A DNA stretch of 64,000 bases from Eledone cirrhosa (Eukaryota): NCBI GenBank assembly GCA_964016885.1, contig OZ024743.1:84258001-84322000 (forward strand), read 5' to 3'. Below the pieces are notes generated by a model that saw nothing but the letters and a program-made list of their open reading frames with translations, was not told the DNA's origin and made no database searches. The position numbers and the translations under genes were made by a program. The first letter of the stretch is position 1. Each line of letters starts with the position of its first letter. This document shows positions 7,775 to 64,000 of the stretch, in pieces.

Positions 7775-7821
<47 letters not shown>

Positions 7822-19207: not shown

Positions 19208-19261
<54 letters not shown>

Positions 19262-21660: not shown

Positions 21661-21737
21661 CTAATTTCACCTCAAATCGTGGTTCTGAACCATTTAGTTT
21701 CTCCACTACAGGTGGCTTTCAGTTCCAAGGAAAACAG
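21661..21737 (+). CDS. NUP153: NUP153 FG-region exon
   Basis: tttcag|...ACAG|gtaaga, phase 1/0. NFTSNRGSEPFSFSTTGGFQFQGKQ. Confidence 0.88.
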
Positions 21738-36962: not shown

Positions 36963-37144
36963 CTGTTCCTTTCCTTGTGGCACTTAGTAAGGGCCTTGCA
37001 TAAATTAGGGTCTGGACAGAGATCAAGGGGTGACTGACCCTTCTTGTTCTTGATATTTAGGTCTGCCCCACTGGCAGCCAGGAAGCAGGCAATAGAGGCA
37101 CTAGATTTCTTGTCCCCACCTGGGGTCCCTAAACCCATCAGAAG
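36963..37144 (-). CDS. MIB1: MIB1 last ankyrin-region exon
   Basis: ttgcag|[60 protein letters not shown]|gtaagg, phase 0/2. Confidence 0.95.
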
Positions 37145-37311
37145 CTGCAAAGATAACAATAAAAGAAAAAGGTTAGTAAAATAGAAATAACAACTAACTT
37201 TACTATGTTTCCAGGTAGAAATCTTCCTGTTTATATATATATATATATGGTGTTGGTGGTGAAGGGTATGTCAGAGGTTGTTGGGGAGGTGGATATGTTT
37301 TTTTACTAAAT

Positions 37312-37351
<40 letters not shown>

Positions 37352-37393
37352 TATATATGTATATATATTATATATATATATATATATATTATA

Positions 37394-37430
<37 letters not shown>

Positions 37431-38460: not shown

Positions 38461-38523
<63 letters not shown>

Positions 38524-38649
38524 CTGTCCCCAAAATGTATGTATGTATATAGGGGTGTGTGTATATATATATATATACATACATATATATATATTCAAGA
38601 AGAATCCCTACCGCAAGCCATTCAATTTCAGTTTTTCTCAAGCTTTTTC

Positions 38650-38943
38650 AAAGGTACTGATATTTCACGCTCAGAGTTGCTGAAGCACGGAACAAACTAC
38701 CTGCATCAGTAGTTAGCTGTTGAGACACTGCATCCTTTAAGGCCTCCATGCTTCCCGAGATTCGCCAATACTACACCTAATGTTCCCCCTCCATACACAT
38801 ATACACATGTATACCATGACTCATACACTGTTCACTTCCCTGACATTTGTATATTATTCTATGTACTATACATGCACCTTTGACGAGTTGTAGTGCACCT
38901 GAGCACTGTACACAATAATTTCATTATTATTATTATTATTATT
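38650..38943 (+). mobile_element. CR1/L2-like LINE 3' end
   Basis: [23 protein letters not shown] resembles the F.RV..WN.LP..VV C-terminal motif. Ends in an (ATT)n tail. Confidence 0.65.
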
Positions 38944-38997
38944 TTATATATACATAGCTGTTGAAACAGCAAGAGCTCAGCCATCAGGCCCTGACTC

Positions 38998-39055
<58 letters not shown>

Positions 39056-39431
39056 CAGTGGTTTACTGAGGGGCGTGGGGTGGAAAGAAACCACAATTAA
39101 ATAAGGTACTCAATACCTTAGTAGAAAAGAAGAAATATATTTATTTTATATAAAAATTATTTCTACAAGACTAGAATTGTTTTATTAATAGAATAATTTC
39201 ATATGAATGAAACAGTTCTAGTCCTTAAAGAGTAATATATATATAATACTGAAAATTTCCCTTATTCAGCAGGGTCATGTACAGGGTTCATGAACAGAAA
39301 TGGGTTAACATTACAAAAGGGTTCCAATAGCAAGGATTGACTCATGAAACCTGTGTGGGGATATGACAAATGGTTTTCAATAAATTCTAATAAAATCAAT
39401 TTTCAAATATTTATTTCATCCTAATACAGTC

Positions 39432-39464
<33 letters not shown>

Positions 39465-40484
39465 CACACACACTTCCCACATGTACAAAACAATCTATTC
39501 AGTTCTCTATCCTCTAGCTGCATATGTCAGTCAAACAGAGGTGGCCATTAAAAAGACAATTGACTTTATATACCAAACATAGATCAAATTTCTATTGTCC
39601 CAGGTCTCTGCTAGACTGTATTGGCCAGGGTTGGGATCATTTCATCAAAAAATATTCTATTATTTAAACAGAACCAAAAGCAAAGCAGCAGACTGTATCC
39701 ACAAAAAGCAACATGCAACTTACATATAGAAGTCATGAAATAAAGCCAAAATTTTATAACCACAAAAGAAGTGCAAATTATTGACTGGTGTGTAATGTGT
39801 ATCTGAGAATAAAGAATGTATTATATGCATCATATTTCTTCACAAGTATATACACATTGGATATTGTATCAAGCAATGTCTGACTAAATAAAATATTTTA
39901 CCTGTGATTGTTGATATGAACTAATCAGAAAATAAGAATAACATTGGTAGCAACAAAACATCATTCTCTGTTTATACCTGGACATAAATTCCTACCACAT
40001 ATATATATATTATCTACATGTTCAGTGTCGACACAATTCCTACCATATATATATATATATATATATGGTCTTTATTCTCTCGTTCACGATTCCACCGAAT
40101 TTATATTCATAGAAATCTGGGACTTGTTTCTTTCTTCTTCATCACTTTCTGCTGCTTAAACCATTTTGTTTGTTTACCCTAGCGTCCCCTTTATTTACGT
40201 GTCCCAACGACTTTTTTTAGCCGTTGCTCGCACCAACCTGAGGTATATGGCCTTTAATGTGATGAAATGCCTACGACGGTTGGAAGGCCACTGATGAGGA
40301 CAAACTTTTTCATATATATATATATATATATATATAGTATCTATATATATATATTTGTTTCTACTTTTGGCACAAGGCCAGCAATTATCCCAGTGTATTA
40401 CTGGTACTTTATTTTATCGACCCTGTAAGGATGAAAGGCAAAGTTAACCTCGGCGGGATTTGTACAGTGCCAACAGAATTCCTA

Positions 40485-40538
<54 letters not shown>

Positions 40539-40716
40539 AAAAAGGAAATTTTCGCTCTACATGACTGAATACAATAAATGTAATCTGAGTTTTTCGAATA
40601 TTAATAATTGTTTCTACTTTTGGCACAAGGCCAGCAATTACCCAATGCATTACTGGTACTTTATTCTATCGACCCTGGAAGGATGAAAGGCAAAGTTAAG
40701 CTCAGCGGGATTTTCT

Positions 40717-40924
40717 AATATTAATAATAACATTCGATTTGTTTGCAATTATGCAAACAAGCCTCAATTTTATAGCCATGTCAGTAGAATGAACCCTTCA
40801 TTCTTGCTCTTGTGTTCACATGCCAACACAAGAGCAAGAATGAAGGGTTCATTCTACTGACATGGCTATAAAATTGAGGCTTGTTTGCATAATTGCAAAC
40901 AAATCGAATGTTATTATTAATATT
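40717..40924. repeat. Perfect inverted repeat, 100-bp arms, 8-nt loop
   Basis: 40717-40816 is the exact reverse complement of 40825-40924. Loop cacatgcc. Confidence 0.97.
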
Positions 40925-40938
40925 CGAAAATCTCAGAT

Positions 40939-40975
<37 letters not shown>

Positions 40976-41319
40976 ACAGTGTCAAAACAATTCCTACCAC
41001 ATATAGATACTATCTACTTGTACATACTATGTAGAGTGTTTGAGATCAACTTTGCCTTTCATACTTTTGAGCTCGAATATTGGGGTCAATTCTTTCTCTG
41101 CAAGAAATTGTCTGTGTTCCGGGCCTGATGAACGACCCTTAAAGTGCCCATAACAACCTACAACCCCACTAGGTGTTAAGAGGCCTTCCCTTTATCTACT
41201 GTGTCATCACAATTAATACTATATATTGAGCTTATTGTAGAGCAGGGAAAAGTGGACATAGTTGCTGACACTGTCCACTTTTTATATGGGTTTATATACC
41301 CAACAGAAGACATGTCTGT

Positions 41320-44300
41320 GTTCTACAACCCTAGGTCTACAGGATCAGGACAGACCTAATGACAATATAGCTATGTTCTACAACCCTAGGTCTACAGGAT
41401 CAGGACAGACCTAATGACAATATAGCTATGCTCTACAACCCTAGGTCTACAGGATCAGGACAGACCTAAAGACAATGGAGCTATGTTCTACAACCCTAGG
41501 TCTACAGGATCAGGACAGACCTAATGACAATGGAGCTATGTTCTACAACCCTAGGTCTACAGGATCAGGACAGACCTAATGACAATATAGCTATGTTCTA
41601 CAACCCTAGGTCTACAGGATCAGGACAGACCTAATGACAATATAGCTATGTTCTACAACCCTAGGTCTACAGGATCAGGACAGACCTAAAGACAATGGAG
41701 CTATGTTCTACAACCCTAGGTCTACAGGATCAGGACAGACCTAATGACACTATAGCTATGTTCTACAACCCTAGGTCTACAGGATCAGGACAGACCTAAA
41801 GACAATATAGCTATGTTCTACAACCCTAGGTCTACAGGATCAGGACAGACCTAAAGACAATATAGCTATGTTCTACAACCCTAGGTCTACAGGATCAGGA
41901 CAGACCTAAAGACAATGGAGCTATGTTCTACAACCCTAGGTCTACAGGATCAGGACAGACCTAAAGACAATATAGCTATGTTCTACAACCCTAGGTCTAC
42001 AGGATCAGGACAGACCTAAAGACAATATAGCTATGTTCTACAACCCTAGGTCTACAGGATCAGGACAGACCTAAAGACACTGTAGCTATGTTCTACAACC
42101 CTAGGTCTACAGGATCAGGACAGACCTAATGACAATATAGCTATGTTCTACAACCCTAGGTCTACAGGATCAGGACAGACCTAAAGACAATATAGCTATG
42201 TTCTACAGCCCTAGGTCTACAGGATCAGGACAGACCTAAAGACAATATAGCTATGTTCTACAACCCTAGGTCTACAGGATCAGGACAGACCTAAAGACAA
42301 TATAGCTATGTTCTACAACCCTAGGTCTACAGGATCAGAACAGACCTAAAGACACTGTAGCTATGATCTACAACCCTAGATCTACAGGATCAGGACAGAC
42401 CTAAAGACAATATAGCTATGTTCTACAACCCTAGGCCTACAGGATCAGGACAGACCTAATGACAATATAGCTATGCTCTACAACCCTAGGTCTACAGGAT
42501 CAGGACAGACCTAAAGACAATATAGCTATGTTCTACAACCCTAGGCCTACAGGATCAGGACAGACCTAATGACAATATAGCTATGCTCTACAACCCTAGG
42601 CCTACAGGATCAGGACAGACCTAATGACAATATAGCTATGTTCTACAACCCTAGGTCTACAGGATCAGGACAGACCTAATGACAATATAGCTATGTTCTA
42701 CAACCCTAGGTCTACAGGATCAGGACAGACCTAATGACAATATAGCTATGCTCTACAACCCTAGGCCTACAGGATCAGGACAGACCTAATGACAATATAG
42801 CTATGTTCTACAACCCTAGGTCTACAGGATCAGGACAGACCTAAAGACAATATAGCTATGTTCTACAACCCTAGGTCTACAGGATCAGGACAGACCTAAA
42901 GACAATATAGCTATGTTCTACAACCCTAGGTCTACAGGATCAGGACAGACCTAAAGACAATATAGCTATGTTCTACAACCCTAGGTCTACAGGATCAGGA
43001 CAGACCTAAAGACAATATAGCTATGTTCTACAGCCCTAGGTCTACAGGATCAGGACAGACCTAAAGACAATATAGCTATGTTCTACAACCCTAGGTCTAC
43101 AGGATCAGGACAGACCTAAAGACAATATAGCTATGTTCTACAGCCCTAGGTCTACAGGATCAGAACAGACCTAAAGACAATATAGCTATGTTCTACAACC
43201 CTAGGTCTACAGGATCAGAACAGACCTAAAGACACTGTAGCTATGATCTACAACCCTAGGTCTACAGGATCAGGACAGACCTAAAGACAATATAGCTATG
43301 ATCTACAGCCCTAGGTCTACAGGATCAGGACAGACCTAAAGACAATATAGCTATGTTCTACAACCCTAGGCCTACAGGATCAGGACAGACCTAATGACAA
43401 TATAGCTATGTTCTACAACCCTAGGCCTACAGGATCAGGACAGACCTAATGACAATATAGCTATGTTCTACAACCCTAGGCCTACAGGATCAGGACAGAC
43501 CTAAAGACAATGGAGCTATGTTCTACAACCCTAGGTCTACAGGATCAGGACAGACCTAAAGACAATGGAGCTATGTTCTACAACCCTAGGTCTACAGGAT
43601 CAGGACAGACCTAATGACAATATAGCTATGCTCTACAACCCTAGGTCTACAGGATCAGGACAGACCTAAAGACAATATAGCTATGTTCTACAACCCTAGG
43701 TCTACAGGATCAGGACAGACCTAATGACAATATAGCTATGCTCTACAACCCTAGGTCTACAGGATCAGGACAGACCTAAAGACAATATAGCTATGTTCTA
43801 CAACCCTAGGTCTACAGGATCAGAACAGACCTAAAGACACTGTAGCTATGATCTACAACCCTAGGTCTACAGGATCAGGACAGACCTAAAGACAATATAG
43901 CTATGATCTACAGCCCTAGGTCTACAGGATCAGGACAGACCTAAAGACAATATAGCTATGTTCTACAACCCTAGGCCTACAGGATCAGGACAGACCTAAT
44001 GACAATATAGCTATGTTCTACAACCCTAGGCCTACAGGATCAGGACAGACCTAATGACAATATAGCTATGTTCTACAACCCTAGGCCTACAGGATCAGGA
44101 CAGACCTAAAGACAATGGAGCTATGTTCTACAACCCTAGGTCTACAGGATCAGGACAGACCTAAAGACAATGGAGCTATGTTCTACAACCCTAGGTCTAC
44201 AGGATCAGGACAGACCTAATGACAATATAGCTATGCTCTACAACCCTAGGTCTACAGGATCAGGACAGACCTAAAGACAATATAGCTATGTTCTACAACC

Positions 44301-44985
44301 CTAGGTCTACAGGATCAGGACAGACCTAATGACAATATAGCTATGCTCTACAACCCTAGGTCTACAGGATCAGGACAGACCTAAAGACAATATAGCTATG
44401 TTCTACAACCCTAGGTCTACAGGATCAGGACAGACCTAATGACAATATAGCTATGCTCTACAACCCTAGGCCGACAGGATCAGGACAGACCTAATGACAA
44501 TATAGCTATGTTCTACAACCCTAGGTCTACAGGATCAGGACAGACCTAATGACAATATAGCTATGCTCTACAACCCTAGGCCGACAGGATCAGGACAGAC
44601 CTAATGACAATATAGCTATGTTCTACAACCCTAGGTCTACAGGATCAGGACACACCTAATGACAATATAGCTATGCTCTACAACCCTAGGCCGACAGGAT
44701 CAGGACAGACCTAATGACAATATAGCTATGTTCTACAACCCTAGGCCTACAGGATCAGGACAGACCTAATGACAATATAGCTATGCTCTACAACCCTAGG
44801 CCTACAGGATCAGGACAGACCTAATGACAATATAGCTATGTTCTACAACCCTAGGTCTACAGGATCAGGACAGACCTAAAGACAATATAGCTATGATCTA
44901 CAGCCCTAGGTCTACAGGATCAGGACTGACCTAAAGACACTATAGCTATGATCTACAGCCCTAGATCTACAGGATCTGGACTGAT
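41320..44985. repeat. 55-bp satellite, about 66 copies
   Basis: Unit ttctacaaccctaggtctacaggatcaggacagacctaa(t/a)gacaatatagctatg. Confidence 0.98.
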
Positions 44986-45245
44986 CTAGAGAAGATAAAC
45001 AACAACATCTGATGACTCTGTCATTCCAACCTCAACTTCTGATAATCTCCACAACATTACTTTCATCTTTTCTGTCTACATGTGTTTTTAGCAGCTGCCC
45101 ATGTCACACTGTCCCACCCAGTTCTGCATTGTGTCCTCTCCCTCTTTCCATCTCACACAAACAAACTCTCTCTGTTTCATACACACACTTTCTCTCTGTT
45201 TCTCTCTCACACACACACACACGCACGCACGCACGCGCGCGCGCG

Positions 45246-45298
<53 letters not shown>

Positions 45299-45504
45299 TC
45301 CCTGTCATCAATAAAAACCATATGTTGTCTATAAACCACTTCTACACCCAAACTCTCATTTGCTACTACATCTGTGAGTCACTAGGCTATAATCCTCCTC
45401 ATCATCATCATAATCATCACCATCACCACCATCGTCACCATCACCACCATCATCATCACACTCACCACCACCACAACCACTACCACCAGGACCAGCACCC
45501 AATC

Positions 45505-48500
45505 CACACAAACTATGCCCAACACCCAGTCTACACCACAAACTACCACCCACACCCAGTCTACACCACAAACTACCACCCACACCCAGTCTACACCACA
45601 AACTACCACCCACACCCAGTCTACACCACAAACTATGCCCAACACCCAGTCTACACCACAAACTACCACCCACACCCAGTCTACACCCCAAACTACCACC
45701 AACACAGTCTTCACCACAAACTACCACCCTCACCCAGTCTTCACCACAAACTACCACCCTCACCCAGTCTACACCACAAACTACCACCCACACAGTCTTC
45801 ACCACAAACTACCACCCTCACCCAGTCTACACCACAAACTACCACCCTCACCCAGTCTACACCACAAACTACCACCCACACAGTCTACACCACAAACTAC
45901 CACCCACACAGTCTTCACCACAAACTACCACCCTCACCCAGTCTACACCACAAACTACCACCCACACCCAGTCTACACCACAAACTACCACCCACACCCA
46001 GTCTACACCACAAACTACCACCAACACAGTCTTCACCACAAACTACCACCCTCACCCAGTCTACACCACAAACTACCACCCTCACCCAGTCTACACCACA
46101 AACTACCACCCACACAGTCTTCACCACAAACTACCACCCTCACCCAGTCTACACCACAAACTACCACCCTCACCCAGTCTACACCACAAACTACCACCCA
46201 CACAGTCTACACCACAAACTACCACCCACACAGTCTTCACCACAAACTACCACCCTCACCCAGTCTACACCACAAACTACCACCCTCACCCAGTCTACAC
46301 CACAAACTACCACCCACACAGTCTTCACCACAAACTACCACCCTCACCCAGTCTACACCACAAACTACCACCCTCACCCAGTCTACACCACAAACTACCA
46401 CCCACACAGTCTTCACCACAAACTACCACCCTCACCCAGTCTACACCACAAACTACCACCCTCACCCAGTCTACACCACAAACTACCACCTCACCCAGTC
46501 TACACCACAAACTACCACCCTCACCCAGTCTACACCACAAACTACCACCCTCACCCAGTCTTCACCACAAACTACCACCCTCACCCAGTCTACACCACAA
46601 ACTACCACCCTCACCCAGTCTACACCACAAACTACCACCCTCACCCAGTCTACACCACAAACTACCACCCACACAGTCTTCACCACAAACTACCACCTCA
46701 CCCAGTCTACACCACAAACTACCACCCACACAGTCTTCACCCTAAACTACCACCCATACAGTCTTCACCACAAACTACCACCCTCACCCAGTCTACACCA
46801 CAAACTACCACCCACACAGTCTTCACCCTAAACTACCACCCACACAGTCTTCACCACAAACTACCACCTCACCCAGTCTACACCACAAACTACCACCCAC
46901 ACAGTCTACACCACAAACTACCACCCACACAGTCTTCACCACAAACTACCACCCTCACCCAGTCTACACCACAAACTACCACCCACACAGTCTTCACCCT
47001 AAACTACCACCCATACAGTCTTCACCACAAACTACCACCCACACAGTCTACACCACAAACTACCACCCACATAGTCTTCACCACAAACTACCACCCACAC
47101 AGTCTTCACCACAAACTACCACCCTCACCCAGTCTACACCACAAACTACCACCCACACAGTCTTCACCACAAACTACCACCCTCACCCAGTCTACACCAC
47201 AAACTACCACCCTCACCCAGTCTACACCACAAACTACCACCCACACAGTCTTCACCACAAACTACCACCCTCACCCAGTCTACACCACAAACTACCACCC
47301 TCACCCAGTCTACACCACAAACTACCACCCTCACCCAGTCTACACCACAAACTACCACCCACACAGTCTACACCACAAACTACCACCCACACAGTCTTCA
47401 CCACAAACTACCACCCTCACCCAGTCTACACCACAAACTACCACCCACACAGTCTTCACCACAAACTACCACCCTCACCCAGTCTACACCACAAACTACC
47501 ACCCTCACCCAGTCTACACCACAAACTACCACCCTCACCCAGTCTACACCACAAACTACCACCCACACAGTCTTCACCACAAACTACCACCTCACCCAGT
47601 CTACACCACAAACTACCACCCACACAGTCTACACCACAAACTACCACCCACACAGTCTTCACCACAAACTACCACCCTCACCCAGTCTACACCACAAACT
47701 ACCACCCACACAGTCTTCACCCTAAACTACCACCCATACAGTCTTCACCACAAACTACCACCCACACAGTCTACACCACAAACTACCACCCACATAGTCT
47801 TCACCACAAACTACCACCCACACAGTCTTCACCACAAACTACCACCCACACAGTCTTCACCCCAAACTACCACCCACAGTCTTCACCACAAACTACCACC
47901 CACACAGTCTTCACCCCAAACTACCACCCACAGTCTTCACCACAAACTACCACCCACACAGTCTTCACCCCAAACTACCACCCACACAGTCTTCACCCCA
48001 AACTACCACCCACAGTCTTCACCCCAAACTACCACCCACACAGTCTTCACCACAAACTACCACCCACACAGCCTATACCACAAACTACCACCCACACAGT
48101 CTTAACCACAAACTACCACCCACACAGTCTTCACCACAAACTACCACCCACACAGCCTATACCACAAAGTCTTCACCCCAAACTACCACCCACACAGTCT
48201 TCACCACAAACTACCACCCACACAGTCTACACTACAAACTACCACCCTCACCCAGTCTACACCACAAACTACCACCCACACAGTCTACACCACAAACTAC
48301 CACCCACACAGTCTTCACCACAAACTACCACCCACACAGTCTTCACCCCAAACTACCACCCACACAGTCTTCACCCCGAACTACCACCCACAGTCTTCAC
48401 CACAAACTACCACCCACACAGTCTTCACCCCAAACTACCACCCACACAGTCTTCACCACAAACTACCACCCACACAGTCTTCACCACAAACTACCACCCA

Positions 48501-51307
48501 CACAGTCTTCACCACAAACTACCACCCACACAGTCTTCACCACAAACTACCACCCACACAGCCTATACCACAAAGTCTTCACCCCAAACTACCACCCACA
48601 CAGTCTTCACCACAAACTACCACCCACACAGTCTACACTACAAACTACCACCCTCACCCAGTCTACACCCCAAACTACCACCCACAGTCTTCACCACAAA
48701 CTACCACCCACACAGTCTTCACCCCAAACTACCACCCACAGTCTTCACCCCAAACTACCACCCACACAGTCTTCACCACAAACTACCACCCACACAGTCT
48801 TCACCACAAACTACCACCCACACAGTCTTCACCACAAACTACCACCCACACAGACTTAACCACAAACTACCACCCACACAGTCTACACCACAAACTACCA
48901 CCCACACAGTCTTCACCACAAACTACCACCCACACAGCCTATACCACAAACTACCACCCACACAGTCTTAACCACAAACTACCACCCACACAGGCTTCAC
49001 CACAAACTACCACCCACACAGTCTTCACCACAAACTACCACCCACACAGTCTTCACCACAAACTACCACCCACAGAGTCTACACCACAAACTACCACCCA
49101 CACCCAGTCTACACCACAAACTACCACCCAGACAGTCTTCACCCCAAACTACCACCCACAGAGTCTACACCACAATCTACCACCCACCCAGTCTACACTA
49201 CAAACTACCACCCACACCCAGTCTACACCACAAAGTACCACGCACACAGTCTACACCACAAACTACCACCCACACAGTCTTAACCCCAAACTACCACCCA
49301 GACAGTCTTCACCCCAAACTACCACCCACAGAGTCTACACCACAATCTACCACCCACCCAGTCTACACTACAAACTACCACCCTCACCCAGTCTACACCA
49401 CAAAGTACCACGCACACAGTCTACACCACAAACTACCACCCACACAGTCTTAACCCCAAACTACCACCCACACAGTCTTAACCACAAACTACCACCCACA
49501 GTCTTCACCACAAACTACCACCCAGAGTCTACACCACAAACTACCACCCACACCCAGTTTACACTACAAACTACCACCCAGACAGTCATCACCCCAAACT
49601 ACCACCCACAGAGTCTACACCACAAACTACCACCCACACAGTCTACACCACAAACTACCACCCACACAGTTTTCACCCCAAACTACCACCCTCACCCAGT
49701 CTACACCACAAACTACCACCCACAGAGTCTACACCACAAACTACCACCCACACCCAGTCTACACCACAAACTACCACCCAGACAGTCATCACCCCAAACT
49801 ACCACCCAGAGTCTACACCACAAACTACCACCCACACAGTCTACACCACAAACTACCACCCACACAGTCTTCACCACAAACTACCACCCTCACCCAGTCT
49901 ACACCACAAACTACCACCCACACAGTCTACACCACAAACTACCACCCACACCCAGTCTACACCACAAACTACCACCCTCACCCAGTCTACACTACAAACT
50001 ACCACCCACAGTCATCATCACAAACTACCACCCACACAGTCTACACCACAAACTACCACCCACACAGTCTTCACCACAAACTACCACCCACACAGTCTAC
50101 ACCACAAACTACCACCCACACAGTCTTCACCACAAACTACCACCCACACAGTCTTCACCACAAACTACCACCCTCACCCAGTCTACACCACAAACTACCA
50201 CCCACACCCAGTCTACACCACAAACTACCACCCTCACCCAGTCTACACTACAAACTACCACCCACAGTCATCATCACAAACTATCACCCACACAGTCTAC
50301 ACCACAAACTACCACCCACACAGTCTTCACCACAAACTACCACCCACACAGTCTACACCACAAACTACCACCCACACAGTCTTCACCACAAACTACCACC
50401 CACACAGTCTACACCACAAACTACCACCCACACAGTCTTCACCACAAACTACCACCCACAGAGTCTACACCACAAACTACCACCCACAGTCTTCACCACA
50501 AACTACCACCCACACAGTCTACACCACAAACTACCACCCACACAGTCTTCACCACAAACTACCACCCACAGAGTCTACACCACAAACTACCACCCACACA
50601 GTCTTCACCACAAACTACCACCCACAGAGTCTACACCACAACAAACTACCACCCACAGTCTTCACCACAACAAACTACCACCCACATCTAGTCTTCAGCA
50701 CAAACTACCACCCATACCCAATCTTAACCACAAACTACCACCCACACCCAGTCTACACCACAAACTACCACCCACACCCAGTCTACACCACAAACTACCA
50801 CCCTCACACAGTCTACACAACAAACTACCACCCACACCCAGTCTACACCACAAACTACCACCCACACCCAGTCTACACCACAAACTACCACCCACACCAC
50901 AAACTACCACCCACACCCAGTCTACACCACAAACTAACACCCGCACCCAGTTTACACCACAAACTACCACCCACACAGTCTACACCACAAACTACCACCC
51001 ACACCCAGTCTACACCACAAACTACCACCCACCCAGTCTACACCACAAACTAACACCCACACCCAGTTTACACCACAAACTACCACCCACACCCAGTCTA
51101 CACCACAAACTACCACCCACACCCAGTCTACACCACAAACTACCACCCACCCAGTCTACACCACAAACTACCACCCACACCCAGTCTACACCACAAACTA
51201 CCACCCACACCCAGTCTACACGACAAACTACCACCCACACCCAGTCTACACCACAAACTACCACCCACACCCAGTCTACACCACAAACTACCACCCACAC
51301 CCAGTCT
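45505..51307. repeat. 30/28-bp C/A-rich satellite, about 200 copies, preceded by (CA)n and (CAY)n microsatellites
   Basis: Units c(a/t)cacccagtctacaccacaaactaccacc and cacacagtcttcaccacaaactaccacc. Confidence 0.98.
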
Positions 51308-51371
51308 TAACCTTTTCACTAAAAATTAAATATTCTGACCTTAAAAAATAACAAAAAACAAAACAGCAGCA

Positions 51372-54300
51372 ACAGACCAGAGGCAACTGCACTACTGCAA
51401 CAATAGCTGCAATAGACCAGGCACTACTGCAACAGTAGCTGCAATAGACCAGGTACCACTGCAACAGTAGCTGCAATAGACCAGGTACCACTGCAACAGT
51501 AGCTGCAATAGACCAGGTACCACTGCAAGAGTAGCTGCAATAGACCAGGTACTACTGCAACAGTAGCTGCAATAGACCAGGTACCACTGCAACAGTAGCT
51601 GCAATAGACCAGGTACCACTGCAACAGTAGCTGCAATAGACCAGGCACCACTGCAACAGTAGCTGCAATAGACCAGGCACCACTGCAACAGTAGCTGCAA
51701 TAGACCAGGTACCACTGCAACAGTAGCTGCAATAGACCAGGTACCACTGCAACAGTAGCTGCAATAGACCAGGTACCACTGCAACAGTAGCTGCAATAGA
51801 CCAGGTACTACTACAACAGTAGCTGCAATAGACCAGGTACTACTGCAACAGTAGCTGCAATAGACCAGGTACCACTGCAACAGTAGCTGCTATAGACCAG
51901 GTACCACTGCAACAGTAGCTGCAATAGACCAGGTACTACTGCAACAGTAACTGCAATAGACCAGGTACTACTGCAACAGTAGCTGCAATAGACCAGGTAC
52001 CACTGCAATAGACCAGGTACCACTGCAACAGTAGCTGCAATAGACCAGGTACCACTGCAACAGTAGCTGCAATAGACCAGGTACTACTGCAATAGACCAG
52101 GTACTACTGCAACAGTAGCTGCAATAGACCAGGTACCACTGCAACAGTAGCTGCAATAGACCAGGTACCACTGCAACAGTAGCTGCAATAGACCAGGTAC
52201 CACTGCAACAGTAGCTGCAATAGACCAGGTACTACTGCAATAGACCAGGTACTACTGCAACAGTAGCTGCAATAGACCAGGTACTACTGCAACAGTAGCT
52301 GCAATAGACCAGGTACTACTGCAACTGTAGCTGCAATAGACCAGGCACTACTGCAAGAGTAGCTACAATAGACCAGGTACTACTGCAACTGTAGCTGCAA
52401 TAGACCAGGCACTACTGCAACAGTAGCTGCAATAGACCAGGTACTACTGCAACTGTAGCTGCAATAGACCAGGCACTACTGCAAGAGTAGCTGCAATAGA
52501 CCAGGCACTACTGCAACAGTAGCTGCAATAGACCAGGTACTACTGCAACTGTAGCTGCAATAGACCAGGTACTACTGCAACAGTAGCTGCAATAGACCAG
52601 GCACTACTGCAACAGTAGCTGCAATAGACCAGGTACTACTGCAACAGTAGCTGCAATAGACCAGGCACTACTGCAACAGTAGCTACAATAGACCAGGTAC
52701 TACTACAACAGTAGCTGCAATAGACCAGGTACTACTGCAACAGTAGCTGCAATAGACCAGGTACCACTGCAACAGTAGCTGCAATAGACCAGGTACTACT
52801 GCAACAGTAGCTGCAATAGACCAGGTACTACTGCAATAGACCAGGTACTACTGCAACAGTAGCTGCAATAGACCAGGCACTACTGCAACAGTAGCTGCAA
52901 TAGACCAGGTACAACTGCCACAGTAGCTGCAATAGACCAGGCACTACTGCAACAGTAGCTGCAATAGACCAGGTACAACTGCCACAGTAGCTGCAATAGA
53001 CCAGCCACTACTGCAACAGTAGCTGCAATAGACCAGGTACTACTGCAATAGACCAGGTACCACTGCAACAGTAGCTGCAATAGACCAGGCACTACTGCAA
53101 CAGTAGCTGCAATAGACCAGGCACTACTGCAACAGTAGCTGCAATAGACCAGGTACAACTGCCACAGTAGCTGCAATAGACCAGCCACTACTGCAACAGT
53201 AGCTGCAATAGACCAGGTACAACTGCCACAGTAGCTGCAATAGACCAGGCACTACTGCAACAGTAGCTGCAATAGACCAGGTACAACTGCCACAGTAGCT
53301 GCAATAGACCAGCCACTACTGCAACAGTAGCTGCAATAGACCAGGTACTACTGCAATAGACCAGGTACCACTGCAACAGTAGCTGCAATAGACCAGGTAC
53401 AACTGCCACAGTAGCTGCAATAGACCAGCCACTACTGCAACAGTAGCTGCAATAGACCAGGTACAACTGCCACAGTAGCTGCAATAGACCAGGCACTACT
53501 GCAACAGTAGCTGCAATAGACCAGGTACAACTGCCACAGTAGCTGCAATAGACCAGGTACTACTGCAACAGTAGCTGCAATAGACCAGGCACTACTGCAA
53601 CAGTAGCTGCAATAGACCAGGCACTACTGCAACAGTAGCTGCAATAGACCAGGTACTACTGCAACAGTAGCTGCAATAGACCAGGTACTACTGCAACAGT
53701 AGCTGCAATATACCAGGCACTACTGCAACAGTAGCTGTAATAGACCAGGCACTACTGCAACAGTAGCTGCAATAGACCAGGTACTACTGCAACAGTAGCT
53801 GCAATAGACCAGGTACTACTGCAACAGTAGCTGCAATAGACCAGGTACTACTACAACAGTAGCTGCAATAGACCAGGTACTACTGCAACAGTAGCTGCAA
53901 TAGACCAGGTACTACTGCAACAGTAGCTGCAATAGACCAGGTACTACTGCAACAGTAGCTGCAATAGACCAGGTACTACTGCAACAGTAGCTGCAATAGA
54001 CCAGGCACCACTGCAACAGTAGCTGCAATAGACCAGGTACTACTGCAACAGAGCAGGTCCCACTGCAACAGTAACTGCAATAGACCAGATACCACTGCAA
54101 CAGTAGCTGCAATAGACCAGGTACTACTGCAACTGCAATAGCAACAACAAACCAAGTGCAACTATTACAATAGCTGCAATAGACCACTGCAACAATAGCA
54201 ACAAACCAAATGCAGCTACTACAGTAGCTGCAATTGCAACCATAACAACAAAGTGCAACTATTACAGTAGCTGCAATAGAGCAGGTACTACTGCAACACT

Positions 54301-54480
54301 ACTGCAACTGCAATAGCAACAACAAACCACGTACAACTACTACAGTAGCTGCAACAGACCACTGCAACTGCAACAATAGCAACAAACCAAGTGCAACTAC
54401 TACAGTAGCTGCAACATACCACTGCAACTACTACAGTAGCTACAATACAGCATGTGCAACTGCAACAACAACAATAACAA
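51372..54480. repeat. 32-bp satellite, about 95 copies, degenerating toward 54480
   Basis: Unit gcaatagaccagg(t/c)ac(t/c)actgcaacagtagct, with occasional 21-bp deletion units. Confidence 0.98.
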
Positions 54481-54724
54481 ACCAAGTGCAACTGCAAAGA
54501 CAAAGTGCCAGTGCAGTTAGTAAGACAATAGCTGAAGGGTAACAACAGCCCATTGGTAAAAGATGAGAGAAAGAGGTTGTATGGTAGAGCACAGAAGGAA
54601 GTGGGTTGGGGTGAGGTGGGGAGGGAGGGGAGAGAGACAAATACAAAGAAAGCGGGGAAGAAAGCAAAGAAGACAGCAGCAACAGCAGCTGGTAGTGACT
54701 GTGGTGCAGAAAATAAACCCTTAC

Positions 54725-54817
54725 AGTAGTGCTTTTCCAAACTGCATTTTGCTGGGAGTTGGCATCTGTCTCAGGGTTGTTGCCAATGGAAGTCATCCCC
54801 CCAAATGGTTCCACAGC
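54725..54817 (-). CDS. MIB1: Candidate MIB1 93-nt cassette exon (AVEPFGGMTSIGNNPETDANSQQNAVWKSTT)
   Basis: tttcttgtattatag|...ACT|gtaagg. Open in phase 0/0, matching the phase-0 acceptor at 37144. Unique, protein-like sequence. Confidence 0.6.
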
Positions 54818-55025
54818 CTATAATACAAGAAATTTTGCTCATTCTTTCTTTTGGCTCACAAATATCTTGGATAACAAAAATCTTCAAGACATTTTTACTT
54901 GAGTTTTCTATCAGGTTCTTTGCATTGAGGTCGTAATCCCACAACAAAGGTTGTGGTGATTTAAAGCCCAATATAAACTACAGTGAATATAGCTATTCTT
55001 CAGACCAACATAACACATTATTTAT

Positions 55026-55244
55026 CCCTTTAGCATTTACATTACTCTATATATACTTTTGTATTCTTGTGGTAAAGGCTTTATCTTACATAATTATCTC
55101 ATAATATCGAATCTACAAGATTTTGATATTATTTATGTTGAGAACAATACCTTAACATCAGTATGAGTGGCTGGTTATGGCCGGTTTAAACAGAAAGATG
55201 TGGGAGAATTCTGGTCAGATACAGCCAGTTTAAATGCTAAAGGG
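55026..55244 (-). mobile_element. Non-autonomous piggyBac MITE (family A), 219 bp
   Basis: TTAT|CCCTTTAGCATTTA...TAAATGCTAAAGGG|TTAA. Reverse orientation relative to the + copies. Confidence 0.85.
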
Positions 55245-55932
55245 TTAACAAAGATTTCATTTTAAAGAATCTTATTAGAGATGTACTTAATTCAACATTT
55301 CTGATTGTCATGAAATACAGAGCTAGTTTCTTTAGTTTCACATTTAATGATCAGAAGAGAACAGCCATGTAGTGTTTTAAAGTGTATTTATGACATATTA
55401 ATGGTCAATTGGCAGAGTCATTAGCACATAGGATAACATGCCTTGTGGTAGTTCTATCTCTCTGGGCTCAGAGTTCAAATCACACTGAAGTCAATTTTGC
55501 CTTTCATCTTTTCATGGGGCCAATAAAATAAAGTATTAATCCCAGTGGAATTGGTAGCATTGTGAGAGTGTCAGACCAGATACTTTATGGTGTTTGTTTT
55601 GGCTCTTTACATTCTGATTTCAAAATAACTCCAAGGCCTATTTTGGGTGGTAGACTTAATTCACTGTCCAATTTAAAACCACCAGCTGGCTCTTGGAGGG
55701 CTTTTAGTAGAGTCCCCTCTGTTGCAAACCTTCATTTGGGTCAGATCCCCAGTTTGAGGATACTTTCCTCCATCTCACCAACCAAACTATGAGGCCCTAT
55801 AAAGGATCATGGGCACTGTCCTTCCAACCATGACTAAACAATAAAAACAAAAAAAACATTGTTTTATATGAAATTCCAGTTAAGAATAATTAATATTGAT
55901 AATAGAATATGGAATATTGAAATTCCAGTTAA

Positions 55933-56164
55933 CCCTTTCTTGACTGTATTTTTAATGGAATACACTCTGTTTCAATTAATTAATGAAGAATTTTGAAGGA
56001 TTTACTAAAATTACTAATTATTTCATTACCAAGATACTAACTTAATGTAAGGTTCATATATAAAATTATGTTGGAAGATTTTAATTTAAATTGTAAACCT
56101 TTAAAATGGGTGACTTTATTTTATAGAACCAGAGGCAGTTTTGGCCGAGTTGGTAACAAAAGGA
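55933..56164. mobile_element. Second, older TTAA-type MITE family (B); related pieces near 10273-10430, 12330-12560, 29102-29410, 58960-59006 and 62025-62264
   Basis: TTAACCCTTT... and ...GGTA(T/A)CAAAAGG(G/A)TTAA ends. Shared internal aaaattatgttggaagattttaattta. Confidence 0.6.
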
Positions 56165-56319
56165 TTAAGTTATAAGCAAAAATAAAATTTACATCTCACA
56201 CCAATACAGGTATCTCATAAGTTTCTGAGGTGTTTTAATGATTGAGAGCCCTAGTCATATCACAAAAAGTAATGTAAAATGAAACATCTTGCTCAAGAAT
56301 ACAAATGCATTGCCTGTAA

Positions 56320-57010
56320 ATAAGTAATATTTAGTGTAGTATAGTTGTAGTTTTATATGGAATTTTAGTAAAGTAATATTTAATAGCTGTGCAAGAATAT
56401 ATTCCCAGTATAATAGATGTAGTTTCAAGTGGAAACTAGTTAAGTATTATTTAATATTAACCCTTTAGTATTTAAACCGGCCATAACCAGCCAGAACTCT
56501 TTCATCTCTTTCTGTTCAAACTGGCCATAACTGGCCACTCATACTGACATTAAGGTATTGTTCTCAAAATAAATAATCTCAAAATCTCATAGATTTGATA
56601 TTATGTGAGATAATTGGGTAAGGTAAAGTGTTTACCATGAAAACACAATAGTAAATATAGAGTAATGTAAATGCTAAAGGGTTAATACTAGAATATATTT
56701 TTAGTGTAGTATAAATGTAGTTTATATGGAATTTTAGTAAAGCAATATTTAATAGTTGTGTCAGAATATATTCCCAGTATAGTTTATCTAGAAATTTTGA
56801 TTAAGTAATAGTTAATATTGGTATTAGAATATACACCCAGTGTAGTATAGAAGTAGTTTTGTATAAAATTCCTGTTAAGTAATAGTTAATATTAGTACAA
56901 GAATATACACCCAGTGTAGTATAGAAGTAGTTTTGTATAAAATTCCTGTTAAGTAATAGTTAATATTAGTACAAGAATATACACCCAGTGTAGTATATAT
57001 GTAGTTTTTG
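56320..57010. repeat. ~74-bp AT-rich tandem repeat interrupted by a MITE
   Basis: Unit aagtaatagttaatattagtacaagaatatacacccagtgtagtatagaagtagttttgtataaaattcctgtt (period 74 at 56877/56951). Confidence 0.85.
56461..56681 (+). mobile_element. Non-autonomous piggyBac MITE (family A), 221 bp, inserted in a 74-bp tandem repeat
   Basis: TTAA|CCCTTTAGTATTTAAACCGG...TAAATGCTAAAGGG|TTAA. Confidence 0.88.
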
Positions 57011-57278
57011 GTCAAATTGAACCTAGAACTTTTGTTTTGTGATTGCATCCAAGACAAGATGTTTTCTTAACTATTTTTTTCTTTTTATTTGATAAAATTC
57101 CAAGAACAATAAAATATATTTCAAAATATGTAAGAAAATATGATAATATTGTGAAGCAAATAAAACAAAAGATGTGCCAAGTTGCAAAGAAACACACAAT
57201 GTCTGCAACATTGTCATGTTTGGTAGAAATACTAAACATTTTAGTAGTTTGGTTACTGAATTCTGAGACGAAACTAAC

Positions 57279-57293
57279 CAAAGTCACAGCAGC
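57279..57293 (-). CDS. MIB1: Candidate MIB1 15-nt microexon (AAVTL)
   Basis: catcatttgcttcaatgcag|GCTGCTGTGACTTTG|gttagt. Phase 0/0 with no stop. Confidence 0.4.
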
Positions 57294-58468
57294 CTGCATT
57301 GAAGCAAATGATGTCTTTATTAACCATCTTTATGTAAACCATTGTAGTTAATAAAGAAATCATTATTATTATTATTGTTATCATTATTATCCACCATAAT
57401 GAGGATGATGATGATGATGGTGATGACAAAGACAGCACAATAAATAAAATCATGGTTTCAAATACAGGCACAAGGAGGGGGTAGTTAATTACACAAAAAT
57501 CAGTATATTACTGGTACTTTATTTTACCGAACCCCCAAAAGCATGACGGACAAAGTTGACCTCAGCAGGATTTGAACAGAAAATGATAAGAGCTGAAACA
57601 AATATTGTATAGCATCTTGTCTGACACTAATGATTCTGCCAATCTACCGCCCAATAAATATAATTGTTTTTAAGGCCAACAATTTGGGGGAGGGAGAGGG
57701 GAAGTTGAATAAATCAACCACAGTACTTTACTGGTACTTTATTTCATCACACCCCCAGCAAGGAGAGGGGAAGTTGAATAAATCAACCCCAGTACTTTAC
57801 TGGTACTTTATTTTATCCAACCAAGAAGGATGAAAGGCAAAGTTGACCTCAGTAGGAATTGAACTAAGAATGTTAAGAGCTGGAACAAATACTGCTAAAC
57901 ATTTTGCCCGATGCTCTACTAATTCTACCAATCCAACACCCTATGGTTTCTAATTTAAGCACAAGGCAAATAATTTTGGAGGAAAAGAGTGAGTTGATTA
58001 TAACGACCCCAGTACTTTACTGGTACTTTATTTTATTGGCTCTGGAAGGATTTGAACTCAGAATGTTTATTGTGTCCCTGTGTATATCTAGTTTAGAATA
58101 AGTAAGCCATATCTCCCTGTGTATCTGGTTTAGAATAGGTACAGCATAAATATAATGATATAATTCATTTGTCTATCCTGATGTGGGTTGGCTGGATCTG
58201 TAGTATATTATATTTGCTGCTCTTCACAATCCTAACTTATCTGTTAGGTTTAATACATATTTATTAGATGAATCATACCTCAGCTCTGCCATAGTTAATT
58301 CTTCCATCATTGATTCACAGAATTATCTCATCACATGTCTTCCACACACACTCCCTGATAACTTTAACCCTTTCATTAAGCTGGTGTTTGGAACAACAAA
58401 GTTTCTTTCATAATTCCAAATGGAGTCATAGGGGCACTGTAATAACATACATGCCTTATGCAGTTTAA

Positions 58469-58667
58469 CCCTTTAGCATTTACATTACTCTATATATACT
58501 GTTGTATTCTCACGGTAAAGGCTTTATCTCACACAATTATCTCACATAGTATTGATCTATGAGATTTTGATGTTATTTATTTTGAGAACAATACCTTAAC
58601 ATCAGTGTGAGTGACCAGTTACGGCTAGTTTGAACAGAAAGAAACGGCTGGTTTAAATACCATAGGG
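58469..58667 (-). mobile_element. Non-autonomous piggyBac MITE (family A), 199 bp
   Basis: TTAA|CCCTTTAGCATTTAC...AATACCATAGGG|TTAA. Reverse orientation. Confidence 0.82.
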
Positions 58668-59147
58668 TTAAACCTGGTAGAGCCCATCCTTCTCTAGGAC
58701 TGAACACAGTTGATTTCTTCCAAAGAAGAAGAGACAGTGATAGAGAGGCAGTGAGAAAGGCATATATAGGAAGAATCAACCCCAGTATTGAACTGGTATA
58801 ATTTTTATTGACCTTGAAAAGATGACAGGCAAAGTTGATCTCAGCAGGATTTGAACTCAGAAGACAAGAGTCAGAACGAATACAAAAACATTCTATACAA
58901 TGTTCTAATGATTCTGCTAGTTCGCCATCTTTAGATAAATATAAACAGTTTTACATATCATACAACCAGGGGTCAGTTATAGTTAGTTTAGTATCAAAAG
59001 GGTTAATATCATCTGCTCATTTTCTGGTGATCAACCTTCTATAGCAGTGAATGATACTCTTGTTGGTTTCAATCACTGGGTTGTGGCCATACAGGACTAC
59101 CACCGCCAACAATATTGATAATTATATTGATTCTAATAATTGTTGGG

Positions 59148-59732
59148 TATATCTAGTTTAGAATAGGTACACTGTATCCCTGTGTGTACCTAGTTTAGAA
59201 TAGGTACACTGTATCCCTGTGTGTACCTAATTTAGAATAGGTACACTGTATCCCTGTGTGTACCTAGTTTAGAATAGGTACACTGTATTCCTGTGTGTAC
59301 CTAGTTTAGAATAGCTACACTGTATTCCTGTGTGTACCTAGTTTAGAATAGGTACACTGTATTCCTGTGTGTACCTAGTTTAGAATAGGTACACTGTATC
59401 CCTGTGTGTACCTAGTTTAGAATAGGTACACTGTATTCCTGTGTGTACCTAGTTTAGAATAAGTACACTGTATCCCTGTGTGTACCTAGTTTAGAATAAG
59501 TACACTGTATCCCCGTGTGTACCTAGTTTAGAATAGGTACACTGTATCCCTGTGTATATCTAGTTTAAAATAGGTACACTGTGTCTCTGTGTATATCTAG
59601 TTTAGAATAGGTACACTGTGTCCCTTTGTATATCTAGTTTAGAATAGGTACAACATAGTCATGTGTGTATACAGTTTAAGACAGGTACACTGTATCCCTG
59701 TGTGTATCTGGTTTAAGATAGGTAAACTGTAT
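59148..59732. repeat. 37-bp minisatellite, about 15 copies
   Basis: Unit ctagtttagaataggtacactgtatccctgtgtgtac. Confidence 0.96.
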
Positions 59733-60269
59733 CCAGATCCCATGATGAGTATGTCATGGAAAATGCATGGCCTAGTTGTAAGGGTGTTGGACTTACGATC
59801 ATAATGTTGTGGGTTTGATTTCTGGACAGGGTTGTGTGTTGTGTTCTTGAGCAAAACACTTCATTTCGCATTGCTCCAGTATACTCAGCTGAAAATGAGT
59901 ACCAGCAATAATTGGGGGTTTAACCCTGCGATGGACTGGCGTCCTGTCCAGAGCAAGTCTTGTACTCTCAGTTGTTTCATGCCATGGAAACTGGTATAAG
60001 CACCAACCTGATGAGCCTCCAGGGTCAAGACAGACTTTAGATATAGGAGCCCACATGGCTAAACCCTGCTTTATCAGTGAAAAATTATCTTCAAATACTT
60101 ACTACATTAACTCTACTACTTGTTGACTGCTACTTATGTTATCAACGACCAGCCTGGGAGAAATTTTAACTCAGAATATAAAGGGATGTAACAAAATCAA
60201 GCACCTTATGTAATGCTCTACTGATTCTGCCAATGACTAATTACTTATACAAAATACACTCAATATATG

Positions 60270-60958
60270 TGAATATAACCTTTGTAGATTTACAGTCAAC
60301 ACCCATGTCTACATAACATATGCACCATACATGTATATATAACATATTCACAACATGTATATATAACATCACTTGATCTACTTTCAACACCCATGCCTCT
60401 ATAACATATACACATCACTTGTATATATAACATATACACAACATATGTATATATAACCTTTGTAGATCTACATTCAACACCCACATCTATATAACATATA
60501 CACAACATATGTATGTACATACCACATGTATATATAACATCTACAGATTTAAATTCAACACTCATGTGTATATAACATACACTCAACACATGTATATATA
60601 ACATCTACATTCAACACTCATGTCTATATAACATATATACTACACATGTATATATAACCTTTATAGATCTACATTCAACACCCATGTATACAACATATGT
60701 ATATATAATATCTATAGATCTAATTTCAACATCCATGTGTATATAACATATACACAACATTTTTATATATATATCACATCTACATTCAACACTCATGTCT
60801 ATATAACATATATACAACACATGTATATATAGATCTATAGATCTAAATTCAACATTCATGTCTATATAACATCTATAGATCTAATTTCAACACTCGTGTA
60901 TATATAACATATACATACCACATGTATATAAAATATCTATAGATCTACATTCAACACC
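60270..60958. repeat. Degenerate ~60-bp tandem repeat
   Basis: Recurrent agatctacattcaacac(c/t)catgtctatataacatatacacaacatgtatatataac. Confidence 0.85.
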
Positions 60959-61420
60959 AAGAAAAAATACTGCCGCATTTAATGAGACACACTAACGACT
61001 GTCAATTAACAGATTGACAGCCAATAAAACTCAAAGGTTTTTAAAAAGACAACAACAAATGCAAAGAAATATTTGTTTTTAGTTAAAAGAGAAAGTTCTG
61101 CAGTTGTTTCACTATAAATACAGCACCATTGCATTATATCAAATAAACGAGCCTACTAGTTACTTTGCCATGATTCTCTCTCTCTCTCTGTCTGACTATC
61201 TGTCTCTCTTCCTCTCTCTCATTCTGTCTGTCTCTCCCTCTCGCGCTCCAACACAGCATAGTCCAATAGCTTTAGGAATCAGTTATCTCCCCTCTCCAGT
61301 GTATCAGTTAACAAACCTATTGTCATGTGAAGTAACACACTGCTGCATTAACACTATCACATGAATTAACTATCACACACACACACACACTTATATTGCT
61401 CTCCCTGCAGACAGACCCAC

Positions 61421-61438
61421 AGCTATTGCAGGTTCAAT
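61421..61438 (-). CDS. MIB1: Candidate MIB1 18-nt microexon (IEPAIA)
   Basis: catcatttgtcatgtctcatctcaatgtag|ATTGAACCTGCAATAGCT|gtgggt. Phase 0/0. Upstream CTAAT and GACTAAC branch-like motifs. Confidence 0.35.
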
Positions 61439-61544
61439 CTACATTGAGATGAGACATGACAAATGATGATTGATAAGGCAAGACAGACCATTAGAGCACA
61501 GTTCACTTTACAGACCACCCAAGCGATCATGTTAGTCATGTGTA

Positions 61545-61831
61545 CAGGGTTGGATTTAAACCTTGGGGGCCCGGGGCACTTCAGATTGGGGGGGGGGGGG
61601 GGGGTCCTCATACACAAAAAATTAGAATACACAGCAAACCCCCCAATTTTACATATCAAAGTTAGCTTGGCGCAAGTAATTGGAATTACAAAATTCTACC
61701 CATCCTAAAATTAAAAAGCCCAGCTGAGGGCACAAATATATTGCTACGGCTGTCACTGGTGGGGTCCCCCACTGCATGGGGCTGGGGCAATTGCCCTCCC
61801 ACCCCACCGCACTCCATTAAATCAGGCCCTG
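61545..61831. mobile_element. hAT-like MITE, 287 bp
   Basis: 8-bp TSD CATGTGTA (61537-61544 and 61832-61839). Imperfect TIR CAGGGTTGGATTTAA / TTAAATCAGGCCCTG. GC-rich GGGGCCC subterminal motifs. Confidence 0.85.
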
Positions 61832-64000
61832 CATGTGTAGGATGGAAAACAATGTTTCTATTGGTTTTTCCATTGCTGATACAATCTGCTGATTGCAACT
61901 CCTGGCAGAAGAAAGAAGCTCATCATAAGATCAGACCAGAGAAACAATGTTTCCATTGGACTTCACATTGCCAGCATAGAACCTGATCAAATACTTCAAG
62001 GTATCCTTTCCAATTCTTTTATCAATTCTGATACCAATACCAGCTAGGCTAGGACTGGCCCTGATTCTATGAAACAGACTACTCCTTTTAAAGGGTTCTT
62101 ATTTAAATTAAAATCTTTCAACATTAATTTTCCATAAGAATTACACATTAAGCTACTATCTTAGTAATGAATTAATAATTTTAGTAAATCCCTCAAAATT
62201 ATTCATTAATTAATTGAAAAAAAAAAAGTGTATTTCATTAGAAACACAGTGACATAAGGGTTAAGAATTCCATCCATTCACTGCCTCCTGGACTGGTATT
62301 TTATCAATCCCAAAAGGATCAAAGGTAAAGTGAAGCTCAGCAGGATTTGAACTCAGAAAATAGTAATCCAGAACAAACATCAAGAGACATATTTGTGTAT
62401 ATGTCAACTAGGTTAGAGCAGGTTCTTCAGTCCGGTCAATGACCGACAATCTCCTTAATGCTGGTACCACAATAAAAGCACCCAGTAGACTCTGCAAAGT
62501 GATTGCTGTTAGTAAGGGCATCTAGTCCAAGAAACCATGCACAAAAAGGATTGAGATGACACTTCAGTCACATGACAACCTATGTAGTGCTGGTGCCACA
62601 ATAAAACATACCTAGTTCACTCTGTAAGGTAGTTGGCGATAGAAAGGGCATTCAGCTGTAGAGACCATGCCAAAAAGGGATTGAAAGGACTCTTCAGATG
62701 TGTCAAGGCCACAACAACTATTCTGGTGGTGGTGACACAATAAAATGCACCCAGCACACTCTATTATGGCATCCAGCCATAGAAAACTTGCCAAACAAAG
62801 AATAGAGAGGATTCTTTAGCTGTATCAAAGACATAACTATCTCCATAGTGCTTGTGCCACAATAAAATGCACGGTGTACTCTGTAGAGTGAGAGATTGTA
62901 TATTAGCAATACGCAGCTCCCAGCTCGTCTGAGATATCAATGGCACTGATTAAGTACTGATTTTGTCTGTAACAACCTACCCAACCCTTACTAGCAGGGA
63001 AAACGAACGTTAAATGATGATGATGATGTATAAATATGAAGCATAAATATATAGTTTATATGAACCATTGAGATATGTTTGTGTGTGTGTGTGTGTGTGT
63101 GTATATATGAAGTTTATATGAAGCACTGAGAGATATGAATGCTTTGAGAAAGCTGGTACAAAGCAAATTAAAAATTTGAGAGTGAAAATTATATGAGAAT
63201 AAAGCAAGAAACCCCCAAACAAAACAATAGTTTACAGTTTTACCAAATATTCCACAATATTTCTAGGATAGGGGCTCTTTTTCATCACCCTGTAAGGTGG
63301 TTTGTATAGGAAGGGCATCCAGCTATAGAAACCATGCTAAAAAAGGGTTGAGAGGACTTTTCAGGACTCTACATTACTTTTCATTTGAAAACGACCTCAA
63401 AATATGATGAAATGGTATGGCTTAGTGGTTAGAGCGTTGGGCTTGCAATTGTAAAGTTGTCAGTTTGATTCTCAGACCGGATGATGGGTTGTGTTCTTAA
63501 GACACTTTATTTCATGTTGCTCCAGTTTACCCAGCTGTAGACATGAGTTACAACATCACTGGTGTCAAGCTGTAATGGCCATTGCCTTTCCCTTGGACAA
63601 CATCGGTGGTGTGGAGAGGGGAGACTGGTATGCATGGGCGACTGCTGGTCTTCCACAAACAACCTTGCCCTGACATGCACTTTGGAGGAGAGCTTTCTAG
63701 GTGCAAATCCCATGGTCATTCGTGACCATAGGGGGTCTTAAATAATAGAATAAAAGTGTAAAATCTTGTTTTTTTTTTTTTTTTTTTGCTTTACTGAACT
63801 TGAGTTTTCACTCTTGTATTTCAAATTTGTATAGTACCAACTTCCCCAAAACAATCTTAACCAAACCCAATTTAATAGTGTATTAGCAATGCCCCACATC
63901 CTCAAACAGACTCATAGCAAAGGTGAGTTGTTAGTTACAAAGATTAGAACAAAGATTTTCAGGGCCTTAAATGAGGTGATCAGCAAAACTACATACGATG

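Follow-up and report, generated by a model that had tools for sequence, protein, structure and literature searches.

A stretch of 64,000 nucleotides (nt) from the 3.0-Gb genome of Eledone cirrhosa (assembly GCA_964016885.1, contig OZ024743.1, positions 84,258,001 to 84,322,000), here called the window, carries on its minus strand part of MIB1, including almost all of one large intron between exons for the ankyrin region. An initial annotation, based on the letters alone, proposed that this intron hides three frame-preserving exons of 93, 18, and 15 nt that are included in combination. Taken together, the evidence presented here yields one ordinary, conserved, and annotated cassette exon of 93 nt and two unproven, better-than-average microexon candidates, which we term ME1 (18 nt) and ME2 (15 nt).

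The MIB1 locus and the 93-nt cassette exon

Searches with tblastn of the window and neighbouring sequence (200 kb past the window end, 264 kb in all) assign 20 pieces of MIB1 exons to the minus strand. The exon downstream of the large intron, 37144-36963, is 100% identical over 98% of the query to MIB1 of Argonauta and Octopus bimaculoides. The upstream exon, predicted to end in ...DMQDVGK, was located, but its actual ending is ...DMQDVSR; it is 129 nt long, has the phase-0 donor GTAAGG, and stops 25 nt past the window end. All three segments therefore lie inside one phase-0 intron of 26,880 nt (Table 1), and their proposed link to MIB1 by strand and phase holds, as do their coordinates and AG...GT ends.

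Fifteen cephalopod MIB1 records span the junction between these exons (the cluster of P0004, two of whose 14 members stop short of the junction, plus P0024, P0030, and P0137). The 93-nt cassette is present in seven, from octopus species, an argonaut, and a cuttlefish: Argonauta, O. bimaculoides X1, O. vulgaris/O. sinensis, another O. vulgaris isoform, Sepia pharaonis, and two Logan assemblies, which we take to be cephalopod because their insert equals the Sepia insert. The other eight comprise six clean skips, one record with only a different exon of 12 amino acids (aa), and one intron read-through. The RefSeq isoform pairs X1/X2 in O. bimaculoides and O. sinensis differ by exactly the 31 aa of the cassette. 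Octopod records share 28-30 of the 31 cassette residues with the window and cuttlefish-type records 18 of 31, and the exon has canonical splice sites and keeps the frame. With seven records including it and six cleanly lacking it, the segment is an optional frame-preserving cassette, as had been proposed, although it is not hidden, given that isoform X1 of both Octopus species already contains it. The 93-nt exon is real, optional, and conserved, a case of ordinary alternative splicing already in databases.

The cassette is absent from the bivalve, gastropod, and chiton MIB1 records examined; region searches among proteins of similar or shorter length gave no further cephalopod isoform, and the metagenome contigs scanned held no cephalopod DNA with the cassette stretch. 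Listings of the literature on MIB1/mind bomb splicing and on octopus microexons included no paper on an optional MIB1 exon. In O. vulgaris, a further optional exon of 36 nt (12 aa) follows the cassette. It has no counterpart in any frame of the window's MIB1 intron (best score 22), which suggests exon turnover in this intron.

Assembled contigs from relatives, rather than RNA of the sequenced animal, bear on inclusion and skipping. Of 24 listed runs, none is recorded as RNA, and 21, from three other organisms, are RNA by guess; seven different runs of the 21 were compared with the locus (run X6 in both comparisons), as contigs and not raw reads. Contigs cover the 93-nt exon in four of four RNA-like runs. 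A long MIB1 contig (2.3-2.4 kb) ends exactly at the upstream donor, again in four of four (organisms A, B, and C; four studies), which fits a splicing fork there. Contig depths, a poor measure of expression, were 117/286, 10/35, 34/386, and 10/79 for cassette over upstream exon. The cassette acceptor scores 2.0 with matrices from the same gene, and this weak acceptor combined with a strong donor suggests that inclusion is partial and open to regulation.

In runs X1 and X8, only 31 letters of the cassette contig precede position 416 of the genomic segment L029. All 31 would be accounted for by a single exon base and an assembly overlap of 30 letters with the upstream exon, leaving no room for a microexon, and the contigs of both runs appear to join the upstream exon directly to the 93-nt exon. 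Contigs of the same two runs (two studies), spliced at the 5' end of the cassette, appear to continue into the downstream intron (L029 261-324; window 54443-54724), and in this genome no stop interrupts the reading frame for 94 codons beyond the cassette donor. These run-on contigs may be partly spliced RNA or a MIB1 form without RING domains. If the latter predominated, the 93-nt segment would mainly begin a retained intron or serve as an alternative last exon, and the in-frame cassette a minor form or an annotation product. We regard this as highly improbable: the cassette is joined to the downstream exon in proteins of five named species and in the two Logan assemblies, its peptide and frame are kept from octopus to cuttlefish, and partly spliced pre-mRNA explains the run-on contigs. 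An O. vulgaris record of 772 aa continues past the upstream donor into the intron; the same read-through stops after 4 codons here.

Table 1. Features of the MIB1 intron and its flanking exons, in window positions unless a genomic position is given
Feature	Position	Strand	Remarks
Upstream MIB1 exon	G000:C4:84322025-84322153	-	Outside window
MIB1 intron, phase 0/0	37145..64000	-	26,880 nt in total; runs on 24 nt past window end
ME1 acceptor region	61439..61503	-	65-nt AG-free zone, CTAAT at -56, TGC at -42, four YCAY within 40 nt
ME1 shared words	61468-61460; 61447-61439	-	CATCATTTG; TCAATGTAG
ME1, candidate microexon, 18 nt (IEPAIA)	61421..61438	-	TAG acceptor, weak donor GTGGGT; unproven
ME2 acceptor region	57294..57313	-	CATCATTTG at 57313-57305, TCAATGCAG at 57302-57294; AG-free zone 19 nt
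ME2, candidate microexon, 15 nt (AAVTL)	57279..57293	-	CAG acceptor, donor GTTAGT; unproven
Alternative cassette exon, 93 nt, 31 aa	54725..54817	-	TAG acceptor, donor GTAAGG; protein records, RNA-like contigs
Downstream MIB1 exon (LLMGLG...KERN)	36963..37144	-	End of ankyrin region

Tandem repeats make up over half of the intron, of which 12,072 nt are unmasked, and a high-copy repeat lies at about 61546-61700. As the initial annotation held, the three segments sit in islands of unique sequence, in that their flanks match only their own genomic place, in a search that skips common words and is not proof of rarity. On this basis, an origin of the segments from repeats is not supported. Three adjoining satellite arrays occupy 41319-54133 (a 55-mer x67, a 28-mer x202, and a 32-mer x83 or more), the 32-mer array ending about 600 nt downstream of the cassette. 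A second MIB1 intron spans about 110.8 kb (G000:C4:84354694-84465459), and the gene exceeds 230 kb. The convergent neighbour at window 4239-22124 on the plus strand contains RanBP2-type zinc-finger exons (Pfam PF00641, 5933-6178 and 6899-7066) and, further on, FG-rich exons; we take it to be NUP153-like. Fragments of a DDE_Tnp_1_7 transposase, presumably piggyBac-like, lie at 1302-2861 on the same strand.

Position of the cassette in the protein

In an alignment, the cephalopod junction falls at the corresponding junction of human MIB1 (PDB 8V0E), where mammalian MIB1 records carry the 11-residue insert VDAAWEPSKNT. The MIB1 structure comprises ten ankyrin repeats, with an atypically extended helix in the ninth (bioRxiv 10.1101/2024.03.01.582834). 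We modelled the cuttlefish form with cassette (31 sequences; mean predicted local distance difference test score, pLDDT, 55.6): a helix at residues 79-108 runs into a stretch of low confidence at 101-146 that includes the insert at 104-134, and the closest structure to the model is 8V0E. From the alignment and the model together, the cassette likely extends a flexible tip protruding from the ankyrin stack. The insert site is likely the tip of the extended helix in ankyrin repeat 9, where additional residues would be tolerated, in keeping with the claim that this part of the ankyrin region is an insertion point of variable length.

Inclusion would add 31 residues at the repeat-9 helix tip with the frame kept, and neither ligand binding (MZM/REP) nor ubiquitin transfer (RING3) would be expected to suffer. 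Its most likely effect would be on a partner-binding or spacing surface rather than on turning Notch signalling on or off. According to the structural preprint, MIB1 activity rests on RING3, and in cell assays the Notch reporter signal drops only slightly when the whole ANK domain is deleted (bioRxiv 10.1101/2024.03.01.582834). The optional exon, found so far in cephalopod records only, sits in the main Notch-ligand ligase and offers a natural point of variation within this conserved domain.

The candidate microexons ME1 and ME2

Inclusion of the 18- and 15-nt segments, and combinatorial use of all three exons, possibly in neural tissue, had also been proposed; neither inclusion of the short segments, nor combinatorial use, nor neural specificity is supported so far. 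The ME1 or ME2 peptide occurs in none of the 15 junction-spanning cephalopod records, five O. vulgaris isoforms included, and in none of 257 stored proteins. No ME1 or ME2 junction was seen in the contigs, in a survey whose first comparison, over 10 kb, was swamped by repeats, with rows at both segments not visible, and whose second, on the upstream exon alone, did not place the short branch contigs.

Segments of the same form (AG...GT, 6-30 nt, in-frame, and stop-free) number 1,484 in the MIB1 intron, so the form of ME1 and ME2 alone is not above chance. A TGC falls within 45 nt in 310 of these, 93 of which additionally have a YAG and a fair donor. Splice-site scores came from matrices built on 18 donors and 18 acceptors in the MIB1 gene, a small set in which the constitutive scores are in-sample. 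By this measure ME1 ranks 136th of the 1,484, with an acceptor score of 1.9 versus 2.0 for the real cassette and a donor score of 0.3 versus 5.2-13.5 for the 18 constitutive donors (in-sample).

The upstream motifs said to be shared are indeed present, CATCATTTG and TCAATGYAG preceding both segments, and a TGC lies near each acceptor (ME1 at -42 and -60, ME2 at -13 and -5). The two-part motif occurs five times genome-wide against 4.0 expected, and combinations of its acceptor half with a strong donor after it are not enriched (168 against 174 in the control); on these counts the motif was rejected as a genome-wide microexon signature. Three other genome matches of the motif (L030, L031, and L034) were read by eye only. 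Descent of the segments from each other or from the cassette by duplication was likewise rejected, as local alignments were no better than shuffles (86, 14, and 39 of 200 reached the score).

Considering these results together, we lean towards the reading that the MIB1 intron contains one real optional 93-nt exon common to octopus and cuttlefish, and that the 18- and 15-nt segments are likely look-alikes without regular use. Several points weigh against it. Assembled contigs and gene annotations tend to lose rare or very short exons, as a matter of method. ME2 ranks third of the 1,484 in splice score and first of 61 in low-repeat bins, although 0.35 segments matching its scores on both sites are expected per such intron. 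Elsewhere in the gene, both strands included, a single acceptor repeats the ME1 set of AG-free zone, branch point, and TGC (0.04 expected per intron, with criteria fitted post hoc), and four or more YCAY words, as in ME1, are found in 42 of 3,595 candidates. Seven of 300 simulated sets of 104 acceptors contained a pair with two 9-mers of this kind in common, again judged post hoc. Finally, a Srrm234-like locus is present in the genome, and optional inserts of 2-3 residues occur at the same junction in other lineages.

These points feed an alternative that we consider a serious one, if somewhat short of probable: at least one of the short segments is a real microexon, likely confined to neurons and spliced in through Srrm234/eMIC. 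Clusters of YCAY bind Nova, and ME1 may possibly also be under Nova-type control through its YCAY cluster. Fly eMIC exons are described as having a long AG exclusion zone, a CUAAY branch point, a UGC, and a weak 5' site (PMC8797185), and ME1 has all four, with a 65-nt zone and CTAAT. ME2 is the top-scoring candidate outside tandem repeats and has its UGC at -13. On the minus strand, TCAATGYAG is found only at the ME1 and ME2 acceptors within 264 kb; O. vulgaris has its further optional 36-nt exon in the same intron; and the genome contains a match to SRRM_C above the Pfam cut-off (29.3 bits versus a cut-off of 27, E 0.004). The match lies in an RS-rich exon (L035; G000:C22:28167743-28167880, minus strand) that is likely part of a Srrm234 gene.

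Set against this alternative are the 15 cephalopod records without either segment and the two contigs that appear to bypass both. In ME1 the donor is poor and the UGC at -42 lies upstream of most of the pyrimidine stretch, while ME2 has an AG-free zone of 19 nt and no CTAAY. All feature tests for ME1 and ME2, moreover, were chosen after the sequences had been seen. We conclude that the extra features of the two segments are modestly above chance and appear to make both better candidates than average. Taken singly, ME1 and ME2 are each rather doubtful as real exons, and it is unlikely that both are; that at least one is in use comes close to an even question. Were all three exons used, the repeat-9 tip could take as many as eight lengths through combinations of ME1, ME2, and the 93-nt exon.

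Comparison with other MIB1 inserts and microexon systems

The closest counterparts of the cassette are the MIB1 isoforms X1/X2 in RefSeq for octopus (XP_014787470/471 in O. bimaculoides; XP_029643860/861 in O. sinensis) and the Sepia records CAE1285820/817, in which the same cassette is found at the same junction and in both forms. The window cassette differs from the Octopus records by one residue (S for R near the end), and none of the octopus or Sepia records has the 18- or 15-nt segment.

Across animals, we compared 225 junction-spanning MIB1 records, many of which are gene predictions; 152 have no insert. VDAAWEPSKNT, named in the initial annotation as the human insert, was confirmed in 19 of the 225; insect records such as those of beetles lack it, and the fly, for which its absence had been stated, lies outside the comparison. 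Inserts are mostly 10-12 aa in vertebrates and 13-17 aa in chelicerates. Among proteins P0258-P0299, records both with and without an insert exist for three decapod crustaceans (SPQ) and for Branchiostoma floridae (VN). The SPQ difference in crab, lobster, and prawn, at the octopus cassette junction, could be a 9-nt microexon or a shifted splice site. These inserts (the vertebrate VDAAWEPSKNT and kin, and those of chelicerates, decapods, and amphioxus) occupy the same position as the cassette, between DVGK and L(L/I)MGLG, but show by eye no sequence likeness to it. A leading Val in most of them would fit the use of a shifted donor better than a separate exon.

The shared position is a lead to a possible convergent splicing hotspot. 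In its fullest form, the ankyrin-9 tip would be a hotspot varied independently in several lineages, and the octopus version a combinatorial module in which two neural microexons, their acceptors bearing a common code, join the cassette to produce as many as eight neuron-tuned forms of the Notch-ligand ligase; we judge this full scenario to be quite unlikely. Across bilaterians, the same genes have been described as gaining neural exons repeatedly, in a preprint that includes O. bimaculoides and whose main text does not mention MIB1 (bioRxiv 10.64898/2026.09.05.749416). If real, ME1 and ME2 would be further cases of such gain, here in a gene of the Notch pathway and in an animal whose large brain evolved independently, and would be useful rather than surprising.

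With respect to the microexons dependent on SRRM3/4 or Srrm234 and the eMIC domain, ME1 and ME2 fall within the 3-27 nt, frame-preserving, AG/GT definition, a form as common as the 1,484 segments of this intron. Like them, both are short (15-18 nt), a multiple of three, and preceded by a UGC. Of the SRRM3/4 targets examined, 74-79% carry a UGC in the interval from branch point to AG, and this UGC is not strictly required (bioRxiv 10.1101/2024.09.17.613571). In ME1 the TGC at -42 follows CTAAT at -56, and in ME2 the TGC at -13 follows TTAAT at -30, although this is a weak test, given the 310 segments with a TGC nearby. ME1 is also alike in its long AG-free zone and CUAAY branch point, whereas ME2 is unlike in having no long AG-free zone, and the 93-nt exon is unlike in being too long and having no nearby UGC. 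Neither short segment is assigned to the class, and both stand as candidates only, ME1 appearing to fit the eMIC pattern and ME2 to fit it in part.

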